A stretch of DNA of 9,056 bases from a virus (Duplodnaviria > Heunggongvirae > Uroviricota > Caudoviricetes). Location of the stretch: IMG/VR virus record IMGVR_UViG_3300029473_000092. The stretch is one strand, 5' to 3'. Below the pieces are notes generated by a model. The model was given only the letters and a program-made list of their open reading frames with translations, had not been told where the DNA came from and ran no database searches. The translations under genes were made by a program, and so were the position numbers. Positions 857 to 2,225 of this stretch are shown here, in pieces (position 1 is the first letter of the stretch; every line of letters begins with the position of its first letter).

Positions 857-1077
857 GCTGCACCTCCGAGATGCTTCATGTTTTTTCCGGAGCGAAAGGT
901 TATAAGCGGCATACTGACGCGGTAATTACGGCCCAGCGGTTCACAAATCACCTTCTGACATTCACGGTCCACCAGGCTAACACGTAGAACATGCCCTGCA
1001 GGTGTGGTGTACCACTGACCCGGACGAGGACAACGGAAAGTCTGATTGGTAAACCGTTTGAAAATATTCCGGATCAT
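853..1077 (-). CDS. Hypothetical small phage protein (74 aa)
   Basis: ATG at 1077 overlaps the upstream gene's stop (ATGA) and its own stop overlaps the O-like start (ATGA). G-rich SD (AAGGGGG) about 6 nt upstream. No recognisable motif. Confidence 0.5.
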   Translation of the reverse strand: MIRNIFKRFTNQTFRCPRPGQWYTTPAGHVLRVSLVDRECQKVICEPLGRNYRVSMPLITFRSGKNMKHLGGAA

Positions 1078-2225
1078 TTGCGCCCCCTTACCTCTGAAGG
1101 GTTCAGCGACAAATTTATGAGGCAGGCCAGTGCCGAAGCATCATTAATATAGTCATACAAGCTAACAGCCAGCGGAGATTCGGCTTTTGCCAACATAGGA
1201 TAAAGCTGCTGCAGCCAGACCTGATGAATTGATGAAATGTAGGAACAGAGAACGCTGGCGTTATGTGCAACGTCGCTCGGTACAGCGGGCTTTGAAAGCT
1301 GTTTCTCCATCTGGTTAAAGGCATTGATGTATGCCTCTTTGAACTGGGCAGCACGTTTACCCGTGAAACCCATAGCAAGAAACGCAAAGCCGTCGCGGGT
1401 TATTTGATAGCAAGGTAGTTTGCGGCCTGTGCAATCGGTGTAATCACTCACCGAAAAATTGCGGGCAGTGAATGATGCGGAACATTCAAGCGTGCGGATC
1501 TTTTTCAGTACATCGTCATGACGTTTGGAGAAGAAGTTGGCAACAGCCAGGGATGAAGTAACAGCCTGACCATCAACGATGGCAATTTCAGGTTGAGTGA
1601 GGGTTGGGATCGTAGCCATGATGGCAGCCTCTTTGGTGATTTTTAATAACTCACCACCAAGGCTTTCCACGACCTTATTGGTGGTGAGACGTACAGGGGT
1701 GGAAATACCGGTCACCAAAGAACCCGGCCCAACCGAAGTTGGCCCTGCACGCCCCACCATAATTTGGGCGTAATGCTGCTCATGACACAAAAAAACCGCA
1801 AGAGCGCGGTTGTGCGCTTTGGTGAATTCCGGGTTTCCACGCCCGGCACCCGCTTTATAAGGTGCCTGAACAGTGTAACGTCCCGGAATGGCAGAATCAA
1901 TGTGCTGGTGGTCCTTCACACTCAACAAAATCACGCCTGAATTTCCACAAAGGACTAAAGCATTCATGCGGGTAGTCTTTGCGAAGATAGATAACGCGCT
2001 GTGTTTCTGGCTCCCAACGAATAACATGAACATAAAGTCCTCTTCCGTCACGAAACCAGCGGTTAAGTTCCTGCACAACTCGCCCCCCACAGTCAGGTAA
2101 AGTTCTCTGTGGTTACTTACAGCCAGGTGATTTGGTAATCTGCATTCATGCCGTAACAACAGGTGTGCAGCGACACTGACCACCAGCTGTTGCGACAAAC
2201 GGTTATTTGCCGTTAAACTGTTCAT
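1074..2225 (-). CDS. Rha-family phage regulatory protein (Phage_pRha-like domain in residues about 203-300) with an unrecognised ~200-residue N-terminal extension; alternative shorter product from the internal ATG at 1619
   Basis: 383 codons with no stop. ATG at 2225 overlaps the upstream stop (ATGA) with GGAGAA 9 nt upstream. Segment MATIPTLTQPEIAIVDGQAVTSSLAVANFFSKRHDDVLKKIRTLEC…YQITRDGFAFLAMGFTGKRAAQFKEAYINAFNQME matches the Rha domain pattern. The internal ATG at 1619 has GAGG 9 nt upstream. Confidence 0.7.
   Translation of the reverse strand: MNSLTANNRLSQQLVVSVAAHLLLRHECRLPNHLAVSNHRELYLTVGGELCRNLTAGFVTEEDFMFMLFVGSQKHSALSIFAKTTRMNALVLCGNSGVILLSVKDHQHIDSAIPGRYTVQAPYKAGAGRGNPEFTKAHNRALAVFLCHEQHYAQIMVGRAGPTSVGPGSLVTGISTPVRLTTNKVVESLGGELLKITKEAAIMATIPTLTQPEIAIVDGQAVTSSLAVANFFSKRHDDVLKKIRTLECSASFTARNFSVSDYTDCTGRKLPCYQITRDGFAFLAMGFTGKRAAQFKEAYINAFNQMEKQLSKPAVPSDVAHNASVLCSYISSIHQVWLQQLYPMLAKAESPLAVSLYDYINDASALACLINLSLNPSEVRGRK

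Follow-up and report, generated by a model that had tools for sequence, protein, structure and literature searches.

A 383-codon reading frame of a lambdoid prophage as a probable P4-type (eta/kil-like) antisense-RNA immunity cassette

The 383-codon frame described here is probably a P4-type (eta/kil-like) antisense-RNA immunity cassette located in the early-right operon of a lambdoid prophage. Rha, which starts at the internal ATG 1619, is the sole residue-constrained product of this frame, and the 202-codon extension upstream of it is no protein domain; it holds a small gene (DUF4222), a candidate promoter and two RNA genes. Since stops are avoided along the long frame without selection at the level of residues, the frame is most likely an eta-like pass-through ORF, in which Rha is nested as a kil-like cistron. 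All positions refer to the window, that is, the whole 9,056-nucleotide stretch of viral DNA that was analysed, and all features of this locus lie on its minus strand.

The long frame (1074..2225), the analogue of P4 eta (ORF199) in the comparison with that phage, is present in the ORF listing of the window as a product of 383 amino acids, exactly as the original prediction had it. PGAP names it 'Rha family phage regulatory protein' (WP_001087308.1, E. coli 4/1-1). Its ATG (2225-2223) shares an ATGA (2222..2225) with the TGA (2224-2222) of the upstream CII-like gene ymfL, an overlap indicative of translational coupling that occurs in P4 as the same GCATGA. The long frame opens exactly at the coupling site, being closed one codon upstream by an in-frame TAA (2231-2229). 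The operon runs from cro through ymfL and this locus to the replication genes, and is linked throughout by overlapping stop and start codons. Within codons 1-202 the long frame contains no stop, compared with 7-13 in each of the five alternative frames over these 606 nt. An exact Markov calculation puts the chance of 202 codons without a stop at 5e-4 when a first-order model describes the region, and at 1e-4 when the model describes the whole window. In nine other ORFs of the window, the frame is open for only 1-23 codons ahead of the first start codon. The open run exceeds chance, as had been claimed. The accompanying claim that no long ORF competes with it stands for the opposite strand, and fails for the same strand, where the DUF4222 gene is read in another frame.

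This gene (1897..2076), which has 59 codons and a GTG start and is shifted to frame +2 with respect to the long frame, is the real protein-coding reading of its interval. It matches Pfam PF13973 (E 9.5e-14) and phrog_1343 (E 1e-36), is annotated by PGAP in strains 1290 and NDM1, and is under purifying selection in its own frame, with dN/dS of 0.07 against the related locus L007 and about 0 against L009. The long frame gives 3.7 and 1.6, respectively, across the same overlap. In the RNA region, dN/dS is 0.75-1.6 in the long frame, and the other frames behave alike. The leader segment (2077..2221) begins with 38 nearly invariant nucleotides, followed by a hairpin with a hypervariable interior (stems 2192-2187 and 2162-2157). 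Its coding evidence is ambiguous: over 2225-2076, dN/dS is 0.3-0.8 in the long frame versus 0.25-0.64 in frame +2, and third codon positions show no excess of substitutions. A search of IMG/VR for DUF4222 returned 80 nearly identical loci, which are uninformative on selection in the leader and DUF4222.

Purifying selection on residues is clear in the Rha part (dN/dS 0.17-0.56). The nested Rha cistron (1074..1619) comprises 181 codons, with the Rha domain PF09669 (E 1.4e-30) at residues 223-308 of the long product and PHROG matches to phrog_821/518 plus anti-repressor PHROGs. The original prediction was right that the internal ATG 1619 has a Shine-Dalgarno sequence of its own, AAGAGG at 1633-1628. 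The start junction, GAGGCTGCCATCATGGCTAC, is conserved from P4 to lambdoid phages, and by position the cistron is an analogue of P4 kil; its stop overlaps the start of the next gene as ATGA (1074-1077). The 202 codons upstream show no residue-level purifying selection, which leaves the 'novel two-domain fusion' of the original prediction unsupported; the stretch is filled by an other-frame gene, a candidate promoter, a terminator and RNAs. A single-sequence AlphaFold2 model of the 383-residue product (mean pLDDT 35) gave 22-35 for residues 1-202 and 42-60 for the Rha part; such predicted values are consistent with the absence of an N-terminal domain and do not discriminate.

The candidate sigma-70 promoter PisrK (1872..1900), an analogue of P4 PLE and P1 P1c4, consists of a -35 element TTGATT (1900-1895) lying over the DUF4222 stop codon, a 17-nt spacer and a -10 element TACACT (1877-1872), and would start transcription at 1865. 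A consensus sigma-70 scan of positions 1500-2400 found no site at threshold, the candidate matching only 8/12, and the call therefore rests on cross-context conservation, as hexamers and spacing are kept upstream of isrK among unrelated upstream contexts. The RNA that follows (1789..1865) is an isrK-family sRNA, corresponding to P4 seqA and the P1 a1/b1 region, with two hairpins and a terminator (Rfam RF01394, 67.0 bits against a gathering score of 50, E 5e-13). A terminator scan placed the intrinsic terminator at stem 1811-1794 plus a T run. An intrinsic terminator within an ORF is unusual, and counts against the explanation offered here.

The second RNA gene (1677..1764) encodes a C4-family antisense RNA of the P1 C4/P4 CI family. 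It is matched by the full-length RF01695 model (positions 1-87; 83.6 bits against a gathering score of 45, E 8e-16), has a fold z-score of -4.1, and P1 c4 was also matched directly by blastn (H118). Its recognition loops are b' (1723-1712, GUUCUUUGGUGA) and a' (1705-1699, UUUCCAC). Target sites within isrK are a1 (1840-1834, GUGGAAA) and b1 (1825-1817, UCACCAAAG), while those downstream of C4 are a2 (1664..1670, GUGGAAA) and b2 (1628..1639, with UCACCAAAGAG at 1639-1629). Loop b' pairs with b1 over 9 bp and with b2 over 11 bp that cover AAGAGG, and a' pairs with a1 and a2 over 7 bp each. Because b2 covers the Rha Shine-Dalgarno sequence (1633-1628), binding of C4 would mask the ribosome binding site.

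This pairing is supported by covariation among 22 cassettes. Pairing in the C4 and isrK helices amounts to 96.6% and includes 21 pairs in which both partners have changed; in a control with slid partners it is 37-45%. The C4 helices are 99-100% paired (both sides changed in 4/5 pairs of the first hairpin and 4/17 of the closing stem), the a'/a1 and b'/b1 helices 97.7% (14/16), and the b'/b2 helix, helix 7, 93% (8/11). Pairing of a' with a2 was measured by duplex search, MAFFT having misplaced the a2 site around a 3-nt gap, and amounts to 7/7 Watson-Crick pairs in every cassette. Each of the 20 b' loop types and 9 a' region types in the 22 cassettes is accompanied by its cognate sites, and the a/b loops define many hetero-immune specificity types. 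Rfam found the isrK and C4 pair in 10/10 lambdoid relatives; a further scan found it in loci L149, L169 and L216, and found no such pair in L217 and L218. A scan of genome contigs gave three loci, one with the cassette and two lacking it, which is too few for a proper control.

The extension had also been described as unrecognised, which holds only in part, as the two Rfam genes lie inside it and residues 117-213 match the whole Pfam model PF10554, Phage_ASH ('Ash protein family'; 'ash family protein' in PGAP). Pfam, PGAP and some papers accordingly assume a genuine two-domain protein, in which an N-terminal 'Ash' domain, together with an unknown segment, is fused to Rha. The match is strong (57.8 bits versus a cut-off of 26), the long form is present in PHROG families, the frame is open in nearly all relatives, and 'Rha/Ash domain' proteins have been described in a 2022 paper on Stx phages (PMC8951638). 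This assumption is nevertheless very improbable. The match corresponds to nt 1877-1587, that is, to isrK, C4 and the target sites a2/b2, and in P4 the model likewise falls on the Rfam hits, where it matches the obsolete 'cI protein' ORF instead of epsilon/Ash; the true P4 Ash/epsilon protein belongs to PF25738. Other matches are SfV orf37 ('immunity region') and the 'Ash family protein' of Hafnia phage yong2. A two-domain protein is already contradicted by dN/dS, codons 51-110 overlap a gene constrained in another frame, residues 1-202 have a pLDDT of 22-35, and from one immunity type to the next the residues in the matched stretch change radically, yet the RNA pairing persists. Judged from the sequences, Phage_ASH is thus a conceptual translation of the RNA cassette, the matched residues being free of protein-level constraint (dN/dS 0.75-1.6). 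The overlap of C4 with Ash is not discussed by Weinberg et al. 2010.

The eta/kil reading draws on the immunity region of phage P4, where, as summarised in PMC10111431, PLE, seqA, cI (the CI RNA) and seqC lie inside the nested frames eta (ORF199) and kil. According to the same summary of Forti et al. 1999, the long frame eta is translated only from upstream transcripts, and its translation prevents termination. The window repeats this order of parts. In both phages, a long ORF is ATGA-coupled to an upstream gene (in P4 eta is joined as GCATGA to ORF88, an alpA homologue), a promoter inside it, constitutive in P4 and a candidate in the window, is followed by an isrK-family element (seqA in P4; 8692-8615) and then by a C4-family RNA (CI in P4; 8507-8420), and a short cistron is nested in frame at the identical junction, GGAGGCTGCCATCATGGCTAC, about 55 nt past the RNA. 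The logic of a/b-type complementarity is common to both. The payload differs, being a 181-residue Rha-family protein in the window and the 65-residue Kil in P4. The 65-codon kil starts at a junction identical to that of the window, and no Kil homology of the nested product was found past the first residues (MATIPTL in the window, MATTLTP in P4). Only in the window is the coupled start separated from the candidate promoter by a 150-nt leader and by DUF4222, the latter read in another frame. Its isrK-C4 spacer is 24 nt compared with 107 nt in P4, and its host element, unlike the satellite P4, is a lambdoid prophage with replication genes downstream. These sequence comparisons indicate that the locus is a repeat of the known P4 eta/kil immunity layout, with a common cassette and a different payload. 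Of the two interpretations in the original prediction, 'two nested products' agrees with the eta/kil precedent, and the 'novel two-domain fusion' does not.

A different account regards the long frame as a by-product that is never usefully translated. In that account, the frame is an accident of the conserved RNA backbone and of low divergence, extended by gene callers to the first ATG, and the real features are DUF4222, isrK, C4 and Rha. Such an accident would fit the dN/dS of about 1 or higher in codons 51-202, the intrinsic terminator and promoter inside the 'ORF', the low single-sequence AlphaFold pLDDT of residues 1-202 (22-35), and the fact that PGAP splits the region into DUF4222 and a shorter Rha in near-identical strains. 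It is harder to reconcile with the distribution of stops. In the core alignment columns of 52 unique cassettes, at freely varying sites, stops are missing only in the long frame, where column frequencies predict 44.7 and 0 are observed; the remaining two frames, with 218 versus 219.6 expected and 152 versus 145.9, match expectation. In an ungapped count, a single in-frame stop occurs in each of 2/52 unique cassettes, both times within the 5' part of isrK, and none of the cassettes has one between alignment column 31, inside isrK, and the junction ATG. A stop would be placed in b1 by 26% of possible b cores, yet it is placed there by 0/20 b types.

The frame also remains open well beyond the cassette. 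Stops and frameshifts in homologues, which would have spoken against the upstream frame, are largely absent: in 128/129 related junction-carrying loci (the exception is L006) the frame is uninterrupted between a point upstream of C4 and the junction ATG, and it is open in 78/78 DUF4222 loci. An in-frame ATG lies upstream of the isrK start in 126/129 loci (ATG 2225 in the window, at a distance of 360 nt), and in other contexts it recurs just upstream of the -35 element, a recurrence that speaks against the by-product account. The same account also has to accommodate a start placed one codon after an in-frame stop and overlapping the upstream stop codon, as in P4 eta. The long frame is open across the diverged DUF4222 genes of E. 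coli, Salmonella, Citrobacter and Hafnia, an outcome that free synonymous recoding of DUF4222 gives in only about 4% of cases; under a stricter control, in which synonymous codons are permuted within DUF4222, it is open in 9-69% of trials. In locus L169 the frame crosses an antisense TumE/antitoxin pair, confirmed by Pfam, over 260 codons without a stop. An open insert of this kind arises in 0.2% of uniform synonymous recodings, 0.5-0.7% of usage-weighted ones and 11% of synonymous-codon permutations. With permutation values of 9-69% and 11%, each single case is weak, and the loci are phylogenetically related. The close relationship of most loci and the lack of significance of these controls one by one favour the by-product account.

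The 5' ATG frame of C4 is not open everywhere. In about 29/46 cassette clusters it stops 9-132 nt downstream of that ATG, which rules out an open frame universal to C4 RNAs as a pure RNA-sequence effect. Stops in that frame in many C4 cassettes elsewhere are likewise compatible with a by-product, and the stop depletion could partly come from the conserved RNA backbone. On balance, the by-product account is unlikely, although it is the most serious of the alternatives. Codon-level conservation, the second property by which the original prediction proposed to judge the N-terminal region, is absent across it. An open frame that is kept without such conservation is seemingly held for ribosome transit and not for a domain. 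The long frame thus seems to be kept for translation and not for its residues, given a dN/dS of about 1 or higher and the avoidance of stops, with the permutation controls being weaker.

Phages P1 and P7 offer a second comparison. Their immI region has the order a1 b1 - c4 - a2 b2 - icd - ant1/ant2 (as annotated in NC_005856), and its C4 is homologous to that of the window (RF01695, blastn). In both P1 and the window, a1/b1 lie upstream and a2/b2 downstream of C4, the first cistron downstream has its ribosome binding site overlapped by b2, and the gene under control is of the anti-repressor type; the specificity type is set by a/b sequences in the window as it is in P1/P7 heteroimmunity. Unlike the window, P1 has no long frame coupled to an upstream gene. 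The open frame that spans its c4 has 66 codons and ends 2 nt short of icd, which is a separate leader cistron, and P1 matches c4-a1b1 (RF03163), not isrK, above threshold. Not every C4 cassette has the open frame, and both P1 and Gifsy-1 use a separate short leader ORF; these observations weigh against the explanation offered here.

In Salmonella Gifsy-1, the isrK-orf45-anrP-isrJ locus includes an isrK sRNA with a leaky intrinsic terminator (Hershko-Shalev et al. 2016, PMC4825925). The structured region after isrK is processed to a stable RNA of ~80 nt, and an anti-repressor gene lies downstream (PMC4825925). This stable RNA occupies the position of C4. The first AUG of orf45, at +107 from the isrK start, opens a frame that is translated, as demonstrated with an SPA tag, and required for AnrP translation; it is conserved in nucleotides but not in residues, and in Shigella dysenteriae it forms a fusion with anrP (PMC4825925). 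The published model regards IsrK as a trans-acting activator and does not invoke repression of the C4/CI type (PMC4825925). The window has an in-frame ATG (1758..1760) at the same place, on the 5' edge of the RNA in the C4 position and in phase with Rha. Gifsy-1 orf45 ends at an AUGA shared with anrP, which is in a different phase, whereas the frame in the window is in phase, unbroken, and continues upstream to ymfL. A start at ATG 1760 is possible, and would produce a Rha isoform longer by 47 codons.

From this parallel, it may be proposed that only a short leader is translated. Ribosomes starting at ATG 1760, the counterpart of the orf45 start, would open the structure, with Rha made by coupling or as the isoform longer by 47 residues, and the frame upstream of 1760 would be open by chance. 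Translation of orf45 and its necessity for AnrP (PMC4825925), the shared position and phase of the ATG, and the absence of in-frame stops from cassette column 31 to the junction ATG in all 52 cassettes are in line with this proposal. It leaves unexplained the avoidance of stops in b1, which lies inside isrK upstream of ATG 1760, as well as the open crossing of DUF4222 and the toxin-antitoxin insert and the ATGA coupling to ymfL. As a complete explanation it is improbable, less so than the two-domain protein and more so than the by-product; translation from ATG 1760 as such is compatible with the eta/kil-like cassette and does not exclude it.

The eta/kil-like cassette would operate in two states. 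In the lysogen, by homology with P1 c4-icd-ant and P4 PLE-seqA-cI-kil, the internal promoter would produce untranslated transcripts that either stop at the isrK terminator or give rise to C4 by processing, and C4 would mask the Rha ribosome binding site and keep Rha off. By analogy, Rha itself is probably an anti-repressor or regulator. After induction, transcripts from PR would carry the coupled start at 2225 and, as P4 eta and the stop statistics suggest, ribosomes would read the long frame through DUF4222, the isrK terminator and C4. Their passage would block both the terminator and the antisense action, allowing Rha and the downstream replication genes to be expressed, and the peptide encoded by codons 1-202 would have no function of its own. 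A broader version of this idea may be formulated, with evenly balanced chances of being correct. Here, the long frame is a 'ribosome bridge', selected only for the passage of ribosomes across a terminator-bearing cassette, even over DUF4222 or a toxin-antitoxin insert; the P4 eta principle would then be general and modular in enterobacterial lambdoid prophages and PICIs, and Pfam 'Ash' would be its meaningless translation.

Of 5426 complete E. coli genomes, 3005 contain similar DNA. At least 80% of the query is matched in only 525 of these, and most of the others match ymfL only. In E. coli and Stx-phage genomes, the 383-residue ORF or a similar one is called a 'Rha family' or 'ash family' protein, and a two-domain 'Rha/Ash' protein is still discussed for Stx phages (PMC8951638). 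If the region is instead read as one small gene, a promoter and a pair of RNA genes, different targets should be deleted or assayed in studies of induction of Stx and other prophages. The C4 loops would represent a second immunity layer above CI/Cro, which probably gates the anti-repressor-like Rha; the window has a CI-like repressor at 3124-3816. If the pass-through reading is true, the locus would provide a simple, testable ORF that is selected for being translated and not for its product, and zero in-frame stops combined with a dN/dS of about 1 would be a comparative signature by which more such ORFs may be found.

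The long frame runs on the minus strand from ATG 2225 to its stop at 1074 (383 codons in the ORF listing), with the Rha domain at residues 223-308 (Pfam, E 1.4e-30). Its start codon shares an ATGA with the stop codon of ymfL, the CII-like gene before it (matching Pfam Phage_CP76 and phrog_101), confirming the overlap pointed out in the original prediction, and because a TAA stands in frame one codon 5' of ATG 2225, the long frame opens at the coupling site. The internal Rha start at 1619, also predicted to carry its own Shine-Dalgarno sequence, is indeed preceded by AAGAGG. Over the 606-nt extension, the 202 codons of the long frame contain no stop, versus 7-13 stops in the other five frames; under a first-order Markov model, such a run has P = 1e-4 to 5e-4. 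In nine other ORFs of the window, the frame stays open for only 1-23 codons 5' of the first start codon. Together, these results bear out the claim that the open extension is real and not a product of chance.

Several elements lie inside the extension, all on the minus strand. A complete DUF4222 protein is encoded at 2076..1897 in a frame other than the long frame (Pfam, E 9.5e-14), followed by the sRNA isrK at 1865..1789 (Rfam, 67 bits; gathering score 50), a region also weakly matched by the Rfam family c4-a1b1, and by the C4 antisense RNA at 1764..1677 (Rfam, 83.6 bits; gathering score 45). The 3' hairpin of isrK and its T run form an intrinsic terminator in the terminator scan. A candidate isrK promoter, TTGATT-17 nt-TACACT, is located 5' of the gene at 1900-1872, its -35 hexamer overlapping the DUF4222 stop codon. 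With 8/12 consensus matches it was not called by a simple promoter scan; its hexamers and their spacing to the isrK start are kept in loci with otherwise unrelated upstream sequence. On the 5' edge of C4, an ATG at 1758-1760 is in phase with Rha, making possible a Rha isoform longer by 47 residues.

C4 is predicted to act by base-pairing with two pairs of target sites. Its b' loop, GUUCUUUGGUGA (1723-1712), is complementary to b1 within isrK, UCACCAAAG (1825-1817), and to b2, UCACCAAAGAG (1639-1629), a site lying over the Rha Shine-Dalgarno sequence. Its a' stretch, UUUCCAC (1705-1699), has complementary GUGGAAA sites in a1 (1840-1834) and a2 (1670-1664). Among 22 cassettes less than 93% identical, the b' loop occurs in 20 versions and the a' region in 9, and every variant has cognate sites of 9-12 bp (b) and 7 bp (a). 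For the internal helices together with b'-b2, pairing reaches 96.6% and both partners have changed in 21 pairs (37-45% paired in a slid-partner control); for a'-a1 and b'-b1, pairing reaches 97.7% and both partners have changed in 14/16 pairs (control 31-53%).

Selection at the protein level was compared by frame, using Nei-Gojobori dN/dS between the window and Salmonella ST64B and Stx1 phage 499. In the DUF4222 overlap, the long frame gives 3.7 and 1.6, and the DUF4222 frame 0.07 and about 0. Across the RNA region (1895-1620), the long frame gives 0.75-1.6, with the other frames indistinguishable from it, and Rha itself (1619-1077) gives 0.17-0.56, with the other frames at about 1 or higher. 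Values for the 150-nt leader (2225-2076) are ambiguous (long frame 0.3-0.8, frame +2 0.25-0.64, frame +1 about 1.3), and substitutions there are not enriched at third codon positions. Long-frame translations diverge radically among immunity types, with RNA pairing kept. These frame-wise ratios and the residue divergence under kept pairing show that the extension is no conserved protein domain. A single-sequence AlphaFold model is poor throughout, with pLDDT 22-35 at residues 1-202, which is weak evidence, versus 42-60 in Rha. Of the two readings originally proposed, the novel fusion domain is thus refuted by dN/dS of 0.75-3.7 in the DUF4222 overlap and RNA region. The leader also contains a hairpin, CAACAG/CTGTTG (2157-2192, minus), with a hypervariable interior; ST64B and Citrobacter sequences differ here, including a 6-nt in-frame indel, and still form hairpins. 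This hairpin may serve as an RNA regulatory element or bind a protein.

The other reading, nested products, matches the eta/kil paradigm of phage P4. The same RNA pair is found in P4 (NC_001609) on the minus strand, as isrK-family seqA (8692-8615) and C4-family CI RNA (8507-8420), surrounded, as in the window, by a long frame, ORF199 (eta). The eta start, ATGATGATG, and the stop of the alpA homologue ORF88 overlap in a GCATGA, and the 65-codon kil begins at caGGAGGCTGCCATCATGGCTAC, to which the window junction is identical. In P4, a constitutive promoter lies inside eta, and its transcript is terminated through CI/seqA interactions and gives CI on processing; Kil is Eta in truncated form, and full-length Eta, coupled to the alpA homologue, is translated only from an upstream promoter, blocking termination so that transcription reads through (PMC10111431, citing Forti et al. 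1999).

The Pfam family Phage_ASH (PF10554) matches residues 117-213 of the long frame (1877-1587, minus), a span made up precisely of isrK, C4, the target sites 3' of them and the first 11 Rha codons; over its full length the model lines up with isrK, C4 and a2/b2. In P4, the old "cI protein" ORF matches it over CI (HMM positions 44-107), whereas the genuine Ash/epsilon protein matches PF25738; the P4 region concerned, 8330-8521 (minus), is that obsolete ORF. PF10554 therefore appears to model RNA genes or a pass-through ORF in conceptual translation.

Conservation of the frame was followed among relatives. An exact copy of the sequence is found in E. coli 4/1-1, and PGAP there gives the name Rha family protein to the 383-aa ORF; for strains 1290 and NDM1, the PGAP annotation is DUF4222 and a 297-aa Rha, yet the long frame is open, as it is in SfV (orf37, "immunity region"), ST64B (Sb41), and cdtI-type and Stx phages. 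Upstream stops or frameshifts in homologues, considered beforehand as grounds for rejection, were not the pattern found: the frame is open in 78/78 IMG/VR loci, and its sole break, in phage 118970_sal3, is a 1-nt insertion that disrupts DUF4222 too. Across 52 unique, mutually related cassettes with the junction GAGGCTGCCATCATGGC, the frame in phase with the downstream ATG has 0 stops in core alignment columns versus 44.7 expected from column frequencies, and the counts for the two remaining frames are 218 (219.6 expected) and 152 (145.9 expected). In the ungapped sequences, 2/52 cassettes have a single in-frame stop, in both cases within the 5' portion of isrK. Of the possible b cores, 32% would interrupt the frame with a stop at b1, b' or b2 (26% at b1 alone), and 0/20 observed b types do so (P about 5e-4 for three sites and about 2e-3 for b1 alone, if b types are independent). 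Only about 4% of free synonymous DUF4222 recodings would leave the long frame open; despite this, it is open in diverged Salmonella, Stx1-phage, Citrobacter and Hafnia versions, and two DUF4222 genes without a downstream cassette have one stop each in the corresponding frame. A looser pattern gave 46 cassette clusters, and in about 29 of these the frame beginning with the C4 5' ATG closes within 9-132 nt downstream of that ATG, so an open frame is not universal among C4 cassettes.

In locus L169, an insert at 10643-11291 separates DUF4222 from the isrK promoter and carries, on the opposite strand, a toxin/antitoxin pair: TumE (PF20126) with an HVO_A0114-type partner (PF25212; Pfam E 2.8e-15 and 1.2e-24 for the pair). 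The long frame there reaches 611 codons and crosses both genes with 0 stops (the other phases have 14 and 11), an outcome of 0.2% of uniform and 0.5-0.7% of usage-weighted synonymous recodings. A stricter synonymous-permutation control leaves the frame open in 9-69% (DUF4222) and 11% (TumE insert). A homologous insert is present in locus L149. In four unrelated upstream contexts (loci L096, L104, L167 and L014), an in-frame ATG recurs 14-20 nt 5' of the isrK -35, at -50 to -56 from the isrK start, which fits a start codon carried only by upstream transcripts. On this comparative evidence, the ORF would be kept for ribosome transit and not for its product.

The pairing of C4 with its target sites follows the logic of P1 immI, for which NC_005856 gives a full annotation in the order a1 b1 - c4 - a2 b2 - icd/ant; P1 c4 is matched directly by blastn. 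In P1, a 66-codon open frame (1469-1669) spans c4 and ends 2 nt before the icd start codon, resembling the orf45/AUGA arrangement of Gifsy-1. The Gifsy-1 leader orf45 starts at an AUG on the 5' edge of a C4-like RNA (+107), is translated, is required for expression of the anti-repressor AnrP, and is conserved in nucleotides but not residues (PMC4825925). The window ATG at the position of that first AUG is 1760, in phase with Rha.

The genes of the early-right operon, which diverges from a LexA-like CI repressor, are linked at every junction by an overlap of stop and start codons, ATGA in three of four: cro/ymfL (2766-2773), ymfL/long frame (2222-2225), Rha/74-aa gene (phrog_1153; 1074-1077) and 74-aa gene/O-like replication gene (853-856), all on the minus strand. 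At the far end of the window, a 268-aa ORF (8144-8950, minus) without a Pfam family adjoins a small AlpA/HTH_17-like gene (7664-7855) and could be a cargo or defence gene. The cassette is most economically interpreted, we infer, as a P4/P1-type second immunity module inserted in the early-right operon. In the lysogen, the internal promoter would produce IsrK and C4, and C4 would mask the Rha ribosome binding site. After induction, upstream transcripts would carry the start at 2225, and ribosomes crossing the cassette in the long frame would override the terminator and antisense control, allowing expression of Rha and the replication genes. The locus corrects the widespread annotation of Rha/Ash "two-domain" proteins, which appears in PMC8951638. 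It is of interest also for its many co-varying specificity types, and as a comparative case of an ORF that may be maintained for transit instead of product.
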